Below, one piece after another: positions 24,939-31,009 of a stretch of 33,079 nt of DNA. Origin of the DNA: a virus (taxonomy: Duplodnaviria > Heunggongvirae > Uroviricota > Caudoviricetes). Location of the stretch: the IMG/VR virus record IMGVR_UViG_2698536401_000003, one strand, 5' to 3'. Positions within the stretch are counted from its first letter, which is position 1; every line of letters begins with the position of its first letter. The notes under the pieces were generated by a model that made no database searches, was not told the DNA's origin, and saw nothing but the letters and a program-made list of their open reading frames with translations. A program made the position numbers and the translations under genes.

Positions 24939-25685
24939 TTACTTCACAACCCTTAAATGACTGACATTTGAACGCCAGCTATCCCAGTTAAAATTCACCC
25001 AGCGACCACCGTTCATGGTCATGCGGTCCATCACGCGCTCGCCAAGCAGCGTATTCATTGCCGTATGGTTCAGGTTCGTCAGCATCCCGACGCTGTGCAT
25101 CGAGGCTGTTCTGCGATCGACTATCTGGTTCAGTGTGACCTGTTCGTTACGCGTATCCCGCTGCATACCAATTTCATCCAGGACAAGCAGGTCAACTTCA
25201 CACAACCCCTGCAAAAATTTTTCGCCCGAGTTTTTGTTGTCGTAGTTGCCGTGTAACGCCAGCATCACATCCGCCACCGTCACCACAATCACGCTGCGAC
25301 CTTTCGCCAGAAGATGGTTGCCAATGGCTGCTGCCAGATGATTCTTTCCGGTACCCGGCTTACCGCTGAACACGAAATTTGTGCATCCGGTCATCATTTC
25401 TTCCGCGATGGATTTTGCCTGGCTCAGCGCGTGGCGTTGGCCATCGTTCTTCACCTGGTAATTCGCAAACGAACACTTCTGGTGCAACAGTTGGATACCG
25501 GAACGCTTCATAATTTTCTCCACCCGGATCTGGCGATTCTGGCGGTTAATTTCCTCACTACGCTTTCGCCCTTCTGCAAGCTGCCACTCTCGCCACTCGT
25601 CCACTGTCCGGTACGGCGCGGTTACATGCTGCGGGGCCAGCTTACGGATACGCTCAAGAACACCACCTGCCGCAATATTTTTCAT
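24939..25685 (-). CDS. DnaC-like replicative helicase loader (IstB-like AAA+ ATPase; YdaV-like)
   Basis: Walker A GKPGTGKNHLAAAIG and Walker B DLLVLDEIG; 248 aa; immediately downstream of the O-like initiator gene. Confidence 0.85.
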   Translation of the reverse strand: MKNIAAGGVLERIRKLAPQHVTAPYRTVDEWREWQLAEGRKRSEEINRQNRQIRVEKIMKRSGIQLLHQKCSFANYQVKNDGQRHALSQAKSIAEEMMTGCTNFVFSGKPGTGKNHLAAAIGNHLLAKGRSVIVVTVADVMLALHGNYDNKNSGEKFLQGLCEVDLLVLDEIGMQRDTRNEQVTLNQIVDRRTASMHSVGMLTNLNHTAMNTLLGERVMDRMTMNGGRWVNFNWDSWRSNVSHLRVVK

Positions 25686-26666: not shown

Positions 26667-27092
26667 TCAATGCACCACCACGGCATTTCCCGCTGGGCCG
26701 CCACGATTCATCTGATTGAAACCAGCAATCGCCACTGCGACAAAATCATCAGCGTCTCTCACCAGTCGTTCCCGCGTCTCCACCAGTTCCCGAAAATAGG
26801 CTGAACTGTGGCTGCGCATTCGGGCCACCAGCAGAGGTGGCATTGCTTTTTCGATCGCTGGTAACAACGCCTGAATTTTTTTAACCGCATCAGGAGTGTC
26901 TTTCTCCACCCAGCGGAAAATTTTCTGGGTGTTACGGCCCAGGGCTTCCGGATGGCTGTCGTCGTACAATTCCGGGAACGTCATACCGAGTTCGAAATAC
27001 GCTTTGGTAATTTTCGCAGCCGGTACTTTCTCGCCGTCTGGATGCGCCCAGGCATTCATCGCCATGCGGATGTGTTCATGCTTGATTTTCAT
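26667..27092 (-). CDS. YdaT-like protein (CII-position regulator of Rac-type prophages; assignment by size/synteny)
   Basis: 141 aa, starts MKIKHEHI; lies between the cro-like gene and the replication initiator. Confidence 0.5.
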   Translation of the reverse strand: MKIKHEHIRMAMNAWAHPDGEKVPAAKITKAYFELGMTFPELYDDSHPEALGRNTQKIFRWVEKDTPDAVKKIQALLPAIEKAMPPLLVARMRSHSSAYFRELVETRERLVRDADDFVAVAIAGFNQMNRGGPAGNAVVVH

Positions 27093-27348
27093 GAATCAAC
27101 TCCGGCGCATTTGATGTGTTAACCTTACATCCAACAGGTAAACCGTCGGTTGGGTTAGGGTATTTATCAGGGCGCAATTCATGCGGAGTCACTCCCCAGC
27201 CAAGCGCCTCACATGCTGGAATGACCTCCTCCGCAGGAACTCGTTTTTTAAACCACCCACTTATAGTTTGTGGAGTTTTACCAAGACGACGCCCTAACTC
27301 TGATTGGCTCATTATCGACAGGATTTTCACTTGAGTACTTTTTTGCAT
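27076..27348 (-). CDS. Cro-like HTH regulator (YdaS-like)
   Basis: ORF 27076..27360 trimmed to the ATG at 27348, which is preceded by a GGAGG SD; HTH MSQSELGRRLGKTPQTISGW; divergent from the repressor gene. Confidence 0.7.
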   Translation of the reverse strand: MQKSTQVKILSIMSQSELGRRLGKTPQTISGWFKKRVPAEEVIPACEALGWGVTPHELRPDKYPNPTDGLPVGCKVNTSNAPELIHENQA

Positions 27349-27360
27349 GTTTCCCTCCAA

Positions 27361-27474
27361 ACTTTACGATGGCACCGATAATTACAAATTTAATTTTAAT
27401 TTTCAACTTCTATTTGTAATGCCACTTATCAATTTTTTCTGTAGGATTGCAGGATTAGTTTTCGAGGGGTGGTG
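27361..27474. promoter_or_regulatory. Immunity-region intergenic operator/promoter region (OR-like)
   Basis: AT-rich 114-bp divergent intergenic region containing TTACAAATTTAATTTTAATTTT...ATTTGTAA inverted-repeat elements; a related motif recurs at 28636-28674. Confidence 0.5.
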
Positions 27475-27867
27475 ATGATCTTTGTAAAACGCCTTCAGCA
27501 GGTGTTGCAGGAATTGAATATAAACCAGTCAGAGCTGGGAAGACGTCTTGGTGTAAAACCCCAATCCGTGCAAGGTTGGTTGAAAGGCGTGATGCCAAGA
27601 ATGGATAAATTGGAAAAATTAGCAGAGCTCTCACAACATCCCGTCCATTGGTTCTTTATGGAAGAAGAAACTCTCGGCGATAAGATGGCTGTATCCAGTA
27701 ATGACAACCAACCGCAACTTACAGAACAACAACGAAAAATCATATCGCTTTTAGATGAGTTACCTCAAAGCGACGCAGAGCAGATCATTCGGGATATGGA
27801 GCAAAAACGCGATTTCTATAAACGCAAACTTGAAGAGTTACTGCGGCAGAAAAACAAAACTGCCTGA
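27475..27867 (+). CDS. CI-like prophage repressor (HTH XRE family; RacR-like position)
   Basis: ATG at 27475 after GAGGGG; HTH NQSELGRRLGVKPQSVQGW; divergent from the cro-like gene. Confidence 0.8.
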   Translation: MIFVKRLQQVLQELNINQSELGRRLGVKPQSVQGWLKGVMPRMDKLEKLAELSQHPVHWFFMEEETLGDKMAVSSNDNQPQLTEQQRKIISLLDELPQSDAEQIIRDMEQKRDFYKRKLEELLRQKNKTA

Positions 27868-27913
27868 TGCGTTCCTTTTCTGGAACGAGCATCAGGCAAA
27901 TGACTAACAGATT

Positions 27914-28273
27914 TTATAATCCCACCAGGCTTTCCAAGGGGATACCAAATTGATTATGAAGACGGCGAATCATTGGTAACGTAAGGCTTCTGGTGCCATT
28001 CAACACCTCGTAAACCCGATTTTTTTTTCCAATTGCGGGTTCCAAATCTTTCACGGTCAGCCCCTGCTGTTCCATGCGAAATCTTATAGCTTCAATTGGG
28101 GATGGTGGCTCAATGGGATAATGTTTTTTTTCATATTCCGCTATTAGCAAACACATCACCTCAAAGAAATCCCCCTCAGGCGTGTTAATTTCCGGCTCAT
28201 TGTCGAACATGGGCTCAACAGCACGCAACGCGGCTTCATAATCTTGCTCTGTACGAATAGGTTTGATGTTCAT
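27914..28273 (-). CDS. higA: HigA-family antitoxin (HTH XRE)
   Basis: 119 aa; C-terminal HTH KNRVYEVLNGTRSLTLPMIRRLHNQFGIP, like HigA; start overlaps the higB stop. Confidence 0.75.
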   Translation of the reverse strand: MNIKPIRTEQDYEAALRAVEPMFDNEPEINTPEGDFFEVMCLLIAEYEKKHYPIEPPSPIEAIRFRMEQQGLTVKDLEPAIGKKNRVYEVLNGTRSLTLPMIRRLHNQFGIPLESLVGL

Positions 28274-28275
28274 GC

Positions 28276-28578
28276 TTACTCCGGTTCAATGGTATCAGCA
28301 TCAATGGCATCGTATTCCTTGTGGTTTCCGATGAATTTAACAAATACCCATCCTCGCTGATACGCAATTGCAACAATTAAACGGTAATGATTACCTTTTA
28401 TGTTGAATACCACGCGCCGGTTTTTCAATATACTGGCCGTTCGGTATTGTGCCTTAATGTCTGCCGGGCTTTTCCAGTCAGCCTTTGCTGCCTCATCCAC
28501 CCATGCCCTTAGCGGTTGTTCTGCATCGGGATTCTCCGCCCAAAAATCCCTAAGCGTTTTAACTGAGATGATCTTCAT
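28276..28578 (-). CDS. higB: HigB-family toxin (RelE/ParE superfamily mRNA interferase)
   Basis: 100 aa; NHYRLIVAIAYQRGWVFVKFIGNHKEYD resembles the HigB core (xxxRvvamvffesqkcyIrevmtHkEYD); toxin-first order typical of higBA. Confidence 0.8.
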   Translation of the reverse strand: MKIISVKTLRDFWAENPDAEQPLRAWVDEAAKADWKSPADIKAQYRTASILKNRRVVFNIKGNHYRLIVAIAYQRGWVFVKFIGNHKEYDAIDADTIEPE

Positions 28579-28619
28579 AACTGTATGGTAGTCCCATTTC
28601 GGGACTAATGCAATCGGCC

Positions 28620-28690
28620 TCAGCTACAAATTTAATGATAAATATATTGACCAATTAAATTTTAATTTGTAGATTATACTCACCAACCAA
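28620..28690. promoter_or_regulatory. OL-like operator/promoter region between higB and the plus-strand early-left genes
   Basis: CTACAAATTTAATGATAAATATATTGACCAATTAAATTTTAATTTGTAG contains an inverted repeat sharing the ACAAATTTAAT motif with the OR-like region; includes a TTGACC -35-like hexamer. Confidence 0.4.
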
Positions 28691-28853
28691 CTCCCCGCCC
28701 CACAGAACGCAGGGCAATACTTCGAGTTACCAGGCAGTGGTCAGGGGTTAAGTAGCCAGCCCGAGGCGTAAGAACATGACGGCAGGGTTCAACTTTAACT
28801 ATGCAGCAGGTTTTTGTTCCGCTACCCCGGCGTTAAGGGGAAATGAGGTCAAC

Positions 28854-29009
28854 ATGGATACTATCGATCTTGGCAACAACGAATCTCTGGTATACGGCGT
28901 GTTTCCCAACCAGGACGGCACATTCACCGCGATGACGTATACCAAAAGCAAAACGTTTAAAACCGAAACTGGCGCGCGTCGCTGGCTGGAAAGAAACTCA
29001 GGCGAGTGA
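28854..29009 (+). CDS. Small hypothetical protein (51 aa; YdaF-like by size and position)
   Basis: ORF 28776..29009 trimmed to the ATG at 28854 (GAGG SD); stop overlaps the start of the next small gene (GTGATATGG). Confidence 0.55.
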   Translation: MDTIDLGNNESLVYGVFPNQDGTFTAMTYTKSKTFKTETGARRWLERNSGE

Positions 29010-29010
29010 T

Positions 29011-29139
29011 ATGGATTTCGACACAATCATGGAAAAGGCTTACGAAGAATACTTCGAAGGCCTTGCCGAAGGCGAAGAAGCTCTCAGCTTCAGTGAGTTT
29101 AAACAGGCGCTTTCCAGCTCGGCAAAATCTAACGGCTGA
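29011..29139 (+). CDS. Small acidic hypothetical protein (42 aa; YdaG-like by size and position)
   Basis: ATG at 29011 translationally coupled to the upstream gene; MDFDTIMEKAYEEYFEGLAEGEEALSFSEFKQALSSSAKSNG. Preferred over the overlapping basic 69-aa ORF 29006..29215. Confidence 0.5.
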   Translation: MDFDTIMEKAYEEYFEGLAEGEEALSFSEFKQALSSSAKSNG

Positions 29140-29168
29140 TAAGCGAAACAGCACCGCGAGGAATCAGT

Positions 29169-29387
29169 ATGCAGAAACGAGAACCCGTCATCATCGCGCC
29201 AGACTATACCGATGATGAACTTTATGAGTGGATGCGCCAGAAAATTAATGCAGCGCAGGATCTGAAATGGGCCAATGAAGCAAGGGCTAAGCAGGCTGAA
29301 AATCTGTCCGCTCTGGAGCAGGATATCACCAGGCTGGAAAAAGCAGCGGCATTAAGCATTGCCAGAATGATTACATACCCACGTTAA
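29169..29387 (+). CDS. Hypothetical protein (72 aa)
   Basis: ATG preceded by GCGAGGAATCAGT; part of the plus-strand early-left gene string. Confidence 0.55.
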   Translation: MQKREPVIIAPDYTDDELYEWMRQKINAAQDLKWANEARAKQAENLSALEQDITRLEKAAALSIARMITYPR

Positions 29388-29408: not shown

Positions 29409-30047
29409 ATGGAATTTAAAGATTTACCAATATCAATACAGGAAATGGTCGCTGATGTGATTCGCTCGCAACTGGCGCGGAACCCAATGGTATTAGTAGA
29501 TAAAGTGTTCATCAGAAATTTATCAAATCATGTCCGCAATTCTTTTACCGGACTGTATTCAGATTCGTTCACAAACAATCATTGTGTAGAAAATAAAGCA
29601 AAGCCCATTGCAGAAACGATAACGCAAAACATCAATACGAAACAAACCGAAGAAGAAATTGACCAGTTTACCCGAGATACTGGCTTAAAATGCAGGAAAG
29701 AAAAATCGCCATATGCGGGGAATATGTTTGTTTATGACAACCTTATCCGAATTCGTGGCGAAATTCCGACTGAATACCTAGCAAGAATTCACCAGGCATT
29801 ACTTAAAAATCTGGAAACGGAAGTATTTGATGGCAATACCAACGGCTCCTTCGTGGTGTCAACTCTAGCAAAAGAGTGGGATACAGATAATCGCTGGAAT
29901 GTTGCCACATGGTTATTCAGCAACAAAGCTGCTGCCCTGGAAGCTGCGGCCTGTATTTGCGACCTGCTAAGGACAGACCGCAAATACAACCTGGATGTGT
30001 ATAGCTATATTTATGCTGAACACTATCCGCTATGGATTAACTGGTAA
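29409..30047 (+). CDS. Hypothetical protein (212 aa) in a relatively AT-rich block
   Basis: ATG preceded by ACGAGG; no motif I recognise; convergent with the following minus-strand gene, no spacer. Confidence 0.6.
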   Translation: MEFKDLPISIQEMVADVIRSQLARNPMVLVDKVFIRNLSNHVRNSFTGLYSDSFTNNHCVENKAKPIAETITQNINTKQTEEEIDQFTRDTGLKCRKEKSPYAGNMFVYDNLIRIRGEIPTEYLARIHQALLKNLETEVFDGNTNGSFVVSTLAKEWDTDNRWNVATWLFSNKAAALEAAACICDLLRTDRKYNLDVYSYIYAEHYPLWINW

Positions 30048-30257
30048 TTACAAAGCTGCACCAGCAGGGCCACGGCGACCAGCGCCACGATTGTAATCAA
30101 TGATGCCATTATAAAGCGCATTATTTAATTTATCGTCGAATGCCGATTCTGTGAGCCCTAGCTCTGAATGAGTTTTTAATAACCCTGATTGCCTGAGTTG
30201 ATTAACCAGGCATTCAATCTGTTTTTCAATAATCGGATGTATTGGCTTGTTTGGCAT
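30048..30257 (-). CDS. Hypothetical small protein (69 aa), transcribed against the early-left operon
   Basis: ORF 30048..30329 trimmed to the ATG at 30257, preceded by a strong SD AATGGAGGATAAA. Confidence 0.55.
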   Translation of the reverse strand: MPNKPIHPIIEKQIECLVNQLRQSGLLKTHSELGLTESAFDDKLNNALYNGIIDYNRGAGRRGPAGAAL

Positions 30258-30649
30258 TTTATCCTCCATTGAAGTTACTGGTTGAGAATGGAGACCACAC
30301 GTGACAGCGTGTTGTCGTGCGCCGGACACGGATAAGAATCCGGCACTGACAGTTTACTGAAAGAATATATCCCTGAAAAGTCAGGGCATAACGCGAAAGC
30401 GCACGGCGGAGGTGTCTTTTCCTTAGAAGGCTTGTCGTTAGATTTCTTCGATTGTGTGCTTCCGGTTGTGGCACTCCGCGAAATGGCGCGGCGGTAAGTA
30501 TGGCGGGGTTATTCCTTACCCCCATTGGTGGCACCGGGTTGTCAGGTTGACCATACGCCTGAGTGACAACCCCGCTACAACACTCCATGTTGATTTGTAC
30601 CTTTGGCGGCATCAGTTTCATTGCTGGCTGATGTCCGCCCTTTTTAAAG

Positions 30650-30809
30650 TGAATTTTGTGATGCGGTGAATGCGGCTGAGCGCACGCGGAACAGTTAAAA
30701 AGCGATTAGTTCCCCCGTATCGGGTGTTTATGGGTTTCCCTGTATCCGGCGTTAATTGTTAACTGGTTAACGTCACCTGGAGGCACCAGGCACCGCATCA
30801 CAAAATTCA
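30650..30809. repeat. Perfect 19-bp inverted repeat pair flanking a 122-bp segment
   Basis: TGAATTTTGTGATGCGGTG (30650-30668) and its exact reverse complement CACCGCATCACAAAATTCA (30791-30809); the downstream arm ends about 18 nt before an SD (GAGGA) and the ATG at 30827. Confidence 0.7.
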
Positions 30810-30826
30810 TTGTTGAGGACGCGATA

Positions 30827-31009
30827 ATGGAAACGTTATTACCAAACGTTAATACGTCTGAAGGTTGTTTTGAAATTGGTGTCAAAATCAGTAACCCAGT
30901 ATTTACTGAAGATGCCATTAATAAGAGAAAACACGAACGGGAGCTATTAAATCAAATATGCATTGTTTCAATGCTGGCCCGTTTACGCCTGATGCAAAAA
31001 GGACGCTGA
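30827..31009 (+). CDS. Hypothetical small protein (60 aa)
   Basis: ATG preceded by GAGGACGCGATA; stop is 2 nt before the next ATG. Confidence 0.5.
   Translation: METLLPNVNTSEGCFEIGVKISNPVFTEDAINKRKHERELLNQICIVSMLARLRLMQKGR

Follow-up and report, generated by a model that had tools for sequence, protein, structure and literature searches.

An inverted higBA pair lies between the repressor gene and the early-left promoter

We analysed a stretch of 33,079 nucleotides from a virus of the class Caudoviricetes (IMG/VR record IMGVR_UViG_2698536401_000003), referred to below as the window, whose right-hand part is the control region of a Qin/Rac-type lambdoid prophage. In this region two genes on the minus strand, higB (28276-28578, 100 amino acids) and higA (27914-28273, 119 amino acids), lie head to tail with the toxin gene first and a gap of 2 nt between them. 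An earlier note on this DNA, made from its letters alone, had placed such a toxin-first pair between the repressor gene and the leftward operator (OL), and the coordinates agree: the repressor gene ends at 27867, higBA occupies 27914-28578 and OL with the early-left promoter (pL) occupies 28624-28675, which is positionally the slot of rexAB in lambda. The pair and the repressor gene lie on opposite strands, a point that the earlier note does not make: the two are convergent, and the pair is divergent from the early-left operon. As argued below, it is probably an autonomous, canonical HigBA cassette that was inserted as cargo between the repressor terminator and OL/pL. The features on which this argument draws are the following:

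27361-27474: rightward operator region (OR), the 114-bp intergenic region between the cro-like and repressor genes, with an inverted repeat and direct repeats D1/D2
27475-27867 (+): gene for a short helix-turn-helix (HTH) repressor, 130 amino acids, in the DicA/CI position; Pfam HTH_3 only
27861-27898: strong hairpin, putative higBA terminator, with a U-run on the minus strand only (dG -25.2 kcal/mol, z = -5.5)
27914-28273 (-): higA
28276-28578 (-): higB
28579-28853: intergenic region between higB and the early-left operon
28585-28613 (-): predicted higBA promoter, with -35 TTGCAT at 28613-28608, a 17-bp spacer and -10 TACCAT at 28590-28585
28589-28607: perfect palindrome O2, TAGTCCC-ATTTC-GGGACTA, predicted HigA operator, within the promoter spacer
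28624-28641: predicted distal OL repressor site, CTACAAATTTAATGATAA; it precedes the pL -35, and 10 bp separate it from the higBA -35
28647-28675 (+): pL, the dicBp equivalent, with -35 TTGACC at 28647-28652, a 17-bp spacer and -10 TAGATT at 28670-28675
28653-28672: predicted proximal OL repressor site, AATTAAATTTTAATTTGTAG, filling the pL spacer and overlapping the -10

Profile searches and alignments to solved structures both upheld the proposed homology of the two proteins. HigB matches the Pfam family PF09907 (HigB_toxin) with 113.7 bits against a cut-off of 27, over profile positions 1-74 of 74, and its residues 1-93 align with solved E. coli HigB (5IFG/5YCL, E=3e-7) with the C-terminal HKEYD motif kept, while HigA carries a C-terminal HTH_3 domain (27.2 bits, cut-off 23) and aligns over residues 6-112 with solved HigA (5YCL/5IFG, E=1.4e-9). 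RefSeq already labels the toxin as 'type II toxin-antitoxin system HigB family toxin'. The higB open reading frame (ORF) is intact at 100 amino acids in 60 of 60 loci examined, and higA is full length (119/120 amino acids) in the 58 loci where it is readable. A toxin domain, a HigA-homologous Xre-type HTH antitoxin, a tight operon in reversed order and a palindrome in the promoter are thus all present at the level of sequence, and this identifies higBA as a canonical and genuine type II toxin-antitoxin (TA) module of the HigB/HigA kind, with a toxin of the RelE-like mRNA interferase family.

The cassette carries a predicted promoter, operator and terminator of its own

We assigned the higBA promoter from conservation among 19 distinct upstream sequences. 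In the -10 hexamer, T1, A2, A5 and T6 are kept except in two Salmonella variants (TACACT), and positions 3 and 4 vary freely (TACCAT, TACTAT, TATCAT, TAACAT, TAATAT, TAGCAT and TAGTAT); the TTG of the -35 is retained in all but a copy located behind a Q antiterminator gene (the Q-context copy, TTTACA; see below), and the spacing is constant. The 10 bp that separate the -35 from the phage operator are hypervariable, and the same -35/-10 layout recurs in plasmid and chromosomal copies of the cassette. This pattern suggests that higBA is transcribed from a weak sigma-70 promoter of its own. Since the -10 ends 6-7 nt before the ATG at 28578 and no Shine-Dalgarno sequence precedes higB, the mRNA is probably leaderless or nearly so, starting at or next to this ATG, whereas the Q-context copy and a copy in an E. 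coli element have a longer leader with a Shine-Dalgarno sequence instead.

The perfect palindrome O2 lies 10 bp upstream of the higB ATG and is unique in the window, with 0.07 occurrences expected by chance. Its form TAGTCCC-N5-GGGACTA accompanies the cassette in immunity-slot, Q-downstream, plasmid and chromosomal contexts. Complete cassettes on plasmids and chromosomes have two palindromes, O1 and O2, that are 9-11 bp apart with the -35 between them, while O2 alone is left in the two prophage versions, that of the window and the Q-context copy. By analogy with characterised HigBA modules, HigA or the HigA-HigB complex would repress the higBA promoter through this single palindrome in the spacer.

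At the other end, the hairpin at 27861-27898 (10+5 bp) overlaps the repressor stop codon between the convergent repressor and higA genes, and RNA from the minus strand runs on through GUUUUGUUUUUCU. The hairpin probably terminates higBA transcription, because a U-run follows it on the higBA strand alone. The outer stem of the hairpin occurs in higBA-carrying E. coli loci (the window and locus L056) and is missing from cargo-free or paaA2-carrying relatives, but also from a higBA-carrying Salmonella locus (L059). The hairpin may therefore be as old as the insertion or younger, having evolved to terminate the convergent higBA transcript.

The palindromic region upstream of higB is the phage's own OL/pL

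The earlier note had described a palindromic, operator-like region at 28620-28690 as lying upstream of the TA pair. The inverted repeat is real and spans 28624-28672, with arms CTACAAATTTAA and TTTAATTTGTAG (28624-28635 and 28661-28672) that are complementary at 11 of 12 positions; it is, however, the OL/pL of the phage and not the operator of the TA module, as it is found in relatives that have no higBA. The same note had seen a motif common to this region and the cI/cro intergenic region, and this sharing withstood a statistical check. The word ACAAATTTAAT, extended to the 12-mer TACAAATTTAAT, has exactly two copies in the 33-kb window, one in the cro/repressor intergenic region (27383-27394) and one in the OL region (28625-28636), and a 19-nt stretch at 27383-27401 is 89% complementary to 28653-28671. 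When the two AT-rich regions were shuffled with dinucleotide composition preserved, a shared word of at least 12 nt arose in 18 of 2000 shuffles of the whole intergenic regions and in 6 of 2000 shuffles of the AT-rich cores only, so the sharing exceeds what AT-richness gives. In a locus with an 89%-identical repressor variant, OR and OL have a word of 17 nt in common. OR also holds an imperfect palindrome, ATTACAAATTTAATTTTAA..TTCAACTTCTATTTGTAAT (27381-27420), that is kept in Salmonella, Sodalis and Arsenophonus relatives.

The predicted pL scores 9/12 in a promoter scan, and the distal OL site, which has the exact 12-mer in common with OR, is kept in relatives without higBA. Arsenophonus and Phlomobacter loci, whose repressor is 49-54% and whose Cro is 62-65% identical to that of the window, carry TTACAAATTAAATTTTAAT...TTGACA-17-TAGATT 60-100 bp after the repressor gene together with matching words in their own OR, and tblastn gave no HigB or HigA match in these loci. 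In a Sodalis prophage, whose repressor is 71% identical, this type of promoter, with diverged site words, lies 478 bp after the repressor gene, and higBA is again absent. The scan of genome contigs with the repressor alignment yielded 5 loci, which show OL without higBA and are too few for a census of cargo. Across the family loci, including those of Sodalis, Arsenophonus and Phlomobacter, the N-terminal HTH half of the repressor is almost invariant, which fits a common operator specificity. Since relatives without higBA have the same OL, OL/pL is ancestral to the immunity family, with higBA inserted between the repressor terminator and OL. Comparison with these relatives thus indicates that the palindromic region at 28624-28675 is the phage's own ancestral OL/pL and not a TA operator, and we infer that this AT-rich region is where the prophage repressor would shut off the divergent early-left (ydfABC-dicF) promoter.

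higBA is completely linked to the repressor in E. coli and travels independently elsewhere

Among 5426 complete E. coli genomes, the repressor segment was found in 148 and higBA in 149, with both in 148; the additional higBA genome is that of the Q-context copy. Likewise, all IMG/VR contigs with the repressor carry higBA too (23/23). The linked E. coli genomes include many O26, O103, O111 and O121 pathotypes, and the closest complete genome is that of E. coli strain C5, with identities of 100% for the repressor segment, 99.9% for higBA and 99.5% for the aligned part of a 1.9-kb query. A near-identity search of 50,697 phage records found no isolated phage with the repressor-higBA block, only the ydfABC part being matched.

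What occupies the slot differs between related prophages (identities to the window proteins):

E. coli: repressor 89%; higBA (HigB 96%, HigA 96%)
Salmonella: repressor 75%; higBA (HigB 79%, HigA 88%)
Salmonella Javiana: repressor 72-74%; a PaaA2 homologue (PDB 3ZBE, E=3.5e-18) not followed by a ParE-like ORF, and a TM2-domain gene
Sodalis, Arsenophonus and Phlomobacter: repressor 49-71%; slot empty

That HigB and HigA have diverged in step suggests that both have been inherited with the repressor for a long time. On either side, the replication and early-left genes form a mosaic, and these mosaic flanks together with the varying contents suggest that the slot is a cargo site whose cargo has, in E. 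coli, become fixed within the immunity block. In the Salmonella Javiana locus (L062 4454-5049, GCA_005599395.1) the TM2-domain gene is on the opposite strand, and farther on lies the gene for a 366-amino-acid HTH-Peptidase_M78 protein.

Outside the slot, a diverged higBA copy in E. coli JNEC-KY176 (NZ_AP045172.1, L001 3988-4653; 80% identical in nucleotides, HigB 85%, HigA 90%) immediately follows a Q antiterminator gene and precedes a DUF6645 gene and lysis genes. The position behind Q is a second classic cargo slot of lambdoid prophages. Copies with a HigB 81-87% identical to that of the window are carried by a conjugative plasmid of Serratia, by an E. coli element and by a Klebsiella chromosome, there flanked by metabolic genes, and their HigA has 119-120 amino acids. 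The cassette, as these sequences show, is autonomous and travels with its palindrome into unrelated contexts.

Predicted repressor sites adjoin the predicted higBA promoter, with no overlap seen

The earlier note had suggested that the TA and early-left promoters may share or overlap repressor-binding sites, in which case the repressor would control the TA pair directly and couple it to lysogeny or induction. The positions speak against this: the predicted core higBA promoter (28585-28613) and the repressor sites (28624-28672) are adjacent, and no overlap was seen. Several observations nevertheless suit direct control. The distal OL site starts only 10 bp upstream of the predicted higBA -35, at the place of O1 in complete cassettes (in the window, 10 variable bases and then the distal OL site lie where O1 would be); a minus-strand TATAAT at 28678-28673 overlaps the pL -10; the repressor and higBA are never apart in the 148 E. 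coli genomes and 23 viral contigs; and in prophage CP-933P a TA pair in the same kind of immunity region is under the control of the CI-like PaaR2 (PMC8630535). Yet the conserved -35/-10 around the HigA palindrome overlaps no repressor site, the 10 bp that separate it from the distal OL site differ among the 19 variants, the single-palindrome cassette is also found behind a Q gene without such operators, and the linkage is equally explained by a cassette inside a block that is inherited together for immunity. The minus-strand TATAAT, which would place the higBA promoter inside the OL palindrome, was judged improbable as the main promoter because it lacks a -35, is the complement of the pL -10 region and occurs in higBA-free Arsenophonus loci as well. 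We consider control through shared sites unlikely. Any effect of the repressor on higBA would come from the distal OL site, about -46 to -63 from the predicted higB start and hence upstream of the core promoter, and not via shared operators; coupling of higBA to lysogenic control is therefore possible, but it is not required by the anatomy of the locus.

One version of such coupling, which we regard as doubtful, is that the cassette lost O1 on entering the immunity region, that the distal OL site took its position and that the repressor thereby became a co-regulator of higBA. If this were true, loss of the repressor, be it via induction, curing or recombination with a heteroimmune phage that replaces the immunity region, would shift the HigB:HigA balance, and the TA pair would guard the immunity block or shut off the host in a timed manner.

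Genes and RNAs around the immunity block

The features to the left of the repressor gene and to the right of OL/pL are the following:

24939-25685 (-): DnaC-like gene; the equivalent gene in related loci has IstB_IS21/Bac_DnaA
25692-26645 (-): replication-initiator-like gene; no Pfam family
26667-27092 (-): YdaT-family gene (CII-like)
27076-27348 (-): gene for a Cro-like regulator of the YdaS family, opening the rightward operon (Pfam YdaS_toxin, 33.8 bits, and HTH_3)
28854-29387 (+): homologues of ydfA (DUF1391, 96.6 bits in Pfam), ydfB and ydfC, with which the early-left operon begins
30592-30640 (+): DicF-like RNA (38.7 bits, gathering score 48, E=7e-6)

The Cro-like protein also matches PHROG 35 (transcriptional repressor, E=3e-30) and has 90 amino acids in its RefSeq form. 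The repressor, 130 amino acids in its annotated form, has no peptidase domain and reaches 50.1 bits against the NCBIfam DicA model (NF007257), under the cut-off of 101. RefSeq labels ydfA, ydfB and ydfC on near-identical loci. Directly after the DicF-like RNA is an STnc100-like match at 30638-30859 (+; 37 bits against a gathering score of 47), and the two matches fit a dicBF-type early-left operon. Part of the Qin-type interval between ydfC and dicF is replaced by the gene for a 212-amino-acid protein (29409-30047, +; PHROG 2151 over its full length, no Pfam family), and the next ORF is a small convergent one (30048-30329, -; PHROG 4274, no Pfam family).

The pL leader of about 100 nt shows strong conservation across E. 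coli, Sodalis and Arsenophonus (e.g. CGAGTTA and TAAGTAGCCAGCCCGAGGCGTAAGAACATGACGGC; window 28682-28800, L056 5209-5325, L065 1366-1490, L076 4008-4125). At its end, a conserved GAGG-N8-ATG starts a variable and very short ORF, of 6-9 codons in relatives; its window counterpart continues into the ydfA frame. A structured RNA element in this leader was considered and rejected, as 28682-28800 gave no Rfam match, its single-sequence fold was not significant (z = +1.4) and the consensus fold was weak (-5.6 kcal/mol).

The module would most likely serve to keep the immunity block together

We propose that higBA is expressed from its own promoter (28613-28585) as a leaderless or nearly leaderless mRNA ending at 27861-27898, that HigA or the HigA-HigB complex holds this promoter down through O2 and that HigB, once freed from HigA, would cleave ribosome-bound mRNA as its solved homologues do. 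In parallel, the prophage repressor would shut the early-left promoter at the neighbouring AT-rich palindromic region. The most likely role, by analogy with the proposal made for paaA2-parE2 in CP-933P, is that of an addiction module which locks together the immunity block (cro-OR-repressor-higBA-OL), and the complete linkage of higBA and repressor in 148 E. coli genomes fits such a lock. The alternative that HigBA is an abortive-infection defence and a functional analogue of RexAB, in which HigB, set free when another phage infects, would stop translation, is less probable but a strong second candidate. Exclusion systems are known to gather in the cI-to-pL slot, among them rexAB, bstA (PMC8585504) and HigBAC, which acts against lambda-vir (bioRxiv 10.1101/2024.02.24.581848); the Shiga toxin (Stx) phages H-19B and ST2-8624 have a trio of HigB, extended HigA and a SecB-like protein in the same slot, with HigB and HigA 42-43% identical to those of the window; and the PADLOC model PD-Lambda-2_A (PDLC03979) gives 136.3 bits on the window HigB over positions 1-96 of 97. 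HigBAC, however, senses phage via its chaperone and the C-terminal extension of its antitoxin, and in PD-lambda-2 component B contains a peptidase and component C is essential to defence, all of which are absent in the window: HigA stops right after its HTH, and no third gene fits into the 46 bp before the repressor stop. Close homologues of the pair, moreover, are found on conjugative plasmids and in chromosomes, the classic setting of addiction modules. Addiction is ranked before defence because a module without chaperone, antitoxin extension or peptidase domain has no obvious phage sensor.

That the pair no longer has a function, as a silent or decaying passenger, is very improbable. In line with decay, the upstream palindrome O1 is lost, no Shine-Dalgarno sequence precedes higB and no isolated phage among the phage records has the repressor-higBA block; but HigB has 100 amino acids in all loci and HigA 119/120 in the 58 readable ones, both genes are maintained from E. 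coli to Salmonella at 79-88% amino acid identity, and the promoter positions are conserved while neighbouring bases vary. Some points also weigh against the autonomous addiction cassette that we favour. Sequence cannot separate addiction from defence. The predicted higBA promoter matches the consensus at 7/12 positions and was not called by a generic consensus scan, and the leaderless start is deduced from two features, the 6-7 nt between -10 and ATG and the missing Shine-Dalgarno sequence. Without O1, autoregulation of the prophage copies may differ from that of complete cassettes, and both the perfect linkage to the repressor and the repressor site at the O1 position are also predicted by regulatory coupling.

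Comparison with known systems

Much of this locus is already known: its genes are annotated, the toxin family has been solved and characterised, and TA and exclusion cargo at this slot has been published, including a HigB-family system. We found no published description of a two-gene HigBA, inverted, in a DicA-like/YdaS/YdaT immunity region, of the complete linkage of this HigBA to a repressor, or of a phage operator at its distal operator position. The HigBA locus is thus real but fairly ordinary, and it does not change current understanding. What it offers is one repressor family with higBA, with an orphan paaA2 and TM2 or with an empty slot, a natural comparison set for the value of cargo to a prophage.

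E. coli K-12 HigB/HigA (YgjN/YgjM; 5IFG, 5YCL) and the window pair are both toxin-first two-gene operons with a C-terminal HTH in HigA and a palindromic promoter operator, although the proteins are distant (34 and 42 bits against the PDB chains). The closer relatives, at 70-88% identity, are uncharacterised Enterobacterales copies, and the window prophage copy has one palindrome where complete HigBA cassettes have two.

In lambda, rexAB is transcribed with cI from P_RM. Here the analogy drawn by the earlier note goes as far as position: rexA-rexB and higBA both lie between the repressor gene and OL/pL, but higBA is antisense to the repressor gene, and no sequence relation was found, Pfam, NCBIfam and PHROG scans for RexA/RexB homology giving only HigB- and HTH-type families.

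The paaR2-paaA2-parE2 region of CP-933P in E. coli O157:H7 resembles the window in several respects: in a YdaS/YdaT immunity region, paaA2-parE2 directly follows the CI-like PaaR2, with a PL-like promoter beyond (PMC8630535; Jurenas et al. 2021). paaA2-parE2 stabilises an otherwise unstable plasmid and has been proposed to protect the immunity region against rearrangement (PMC8630535). As far as the published description goes, both regions combine a type II TA pair with a short CI-like repressor, divergent YdaS (Cro-like) and YdaT (CII-like) and, beyond the TA pair, a PL-like promoter whose operators resemble OR. They differ in that paaA2-parE2 is co-transcribed with its repressor and its antitoxin has no DNA-binding domain, whereas the window pair is antisense and has an HTH antitoxin, promoter and operator of its own; the toxin is of the ParE family in CP-933P and of the HigB family in the window. 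A Salmonella relative of the window repressor (72-74% identical) has a paaA2 homologue in the same slot, and among the matches listed for this Salmonella locus only a repressor of the window type was seen where the O157 PaaR2 had been sought.

HigBAC, present in lambdoid prophages (E. coli NT1F31) 'downstream of the cI repressor', defends against lambda-vir: once the tail protein gpV titrates its SecB-like chaperone, infection is aborted (bioRxiv 10.1101/2024.02.24.581848). It likewise places a HigB/HigA-family pair between the repressor gene and OL, in a slot equated with that of rexAB. Systems of this type, however, have a SecB-like chaperone and a long C-terminal extension of HigA (218 amino acids, against 119 in the window) and are co-directional with cI, whereas the window pair is inverted and without extra parts; no third ORF follows higA, only 46 bp separating its stop from that of the repressor. 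In the course of this comparison we noticed an unannotated trio between cI and OL/N, co-directional with cI, in the Stx phages H-19B (AF034975.3, L080 3501-3770 and onward) and ST2-8624 (GQ499358.1, L081 958-2299). It encodes a HigB of 95 amino acids (PF09907, 104 bits), a HigA of 218 amino acids with a C-terminal extension and a 134-amino-acid protein that matches the model PD-T4-9_C/CmdC (SecB-like chaperone; E=3e-11), and is thus most likely a HigBAC-type toxin-antitoxin-chaperone system. The same HigB match occurs in 22 records of Stx1a-converting phages, with no feature annotated beneath it or in a record that is unannotated. The H-19B-type HigB and HigA are 43% and 42% identical to those of the window.

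In PD-lambda-2, component A is HigB-like, component B is a HigA-like HTH fused to an ImmA/IrrE peptidase, and component C, related to a P4 antitoxin, is required for defence (Vassallo et al. 2022; PMC9519451). The PADLOC model PD-Lambda-2_B is matched by HigA only at profile positions 1-119 of 402. Membership in this system was rejected, as HigA has no peptidase domain and there is no component C, and the PADLOC matches reflect generic HigB/HigA ancestry.

The immunity region itself resembles in plan that of Qin, where DicA represses dicBp and operators are common to dicA-dicC and dicBp (PMC10448788). In both, the short repressor lacks a cleavage domain, the cro-like gene is divergent and a pL equivalent drives ydfABC and a DicF-like RNA; Qin dicBp has an identical TTGACC -35, a 17-bp spacer with an operator and a second operator upstream, with its own operator words at the same two places. 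Those words are different, however (TTAGYNNNNRCTAA type), and the window repressor is 22% identical to DicA, which on sequence makes it a separate immunity specificity and not a DicA orthologue. In Qin, dicA and ydfA are separated by 166 bp with no gene between them. The stretch from a lambdoid repressor gene to pL is a cargo slot that has been filled repeatedly, by rexAB, bstA, paaA2-parE2, HigBAC and now plain HigBA.

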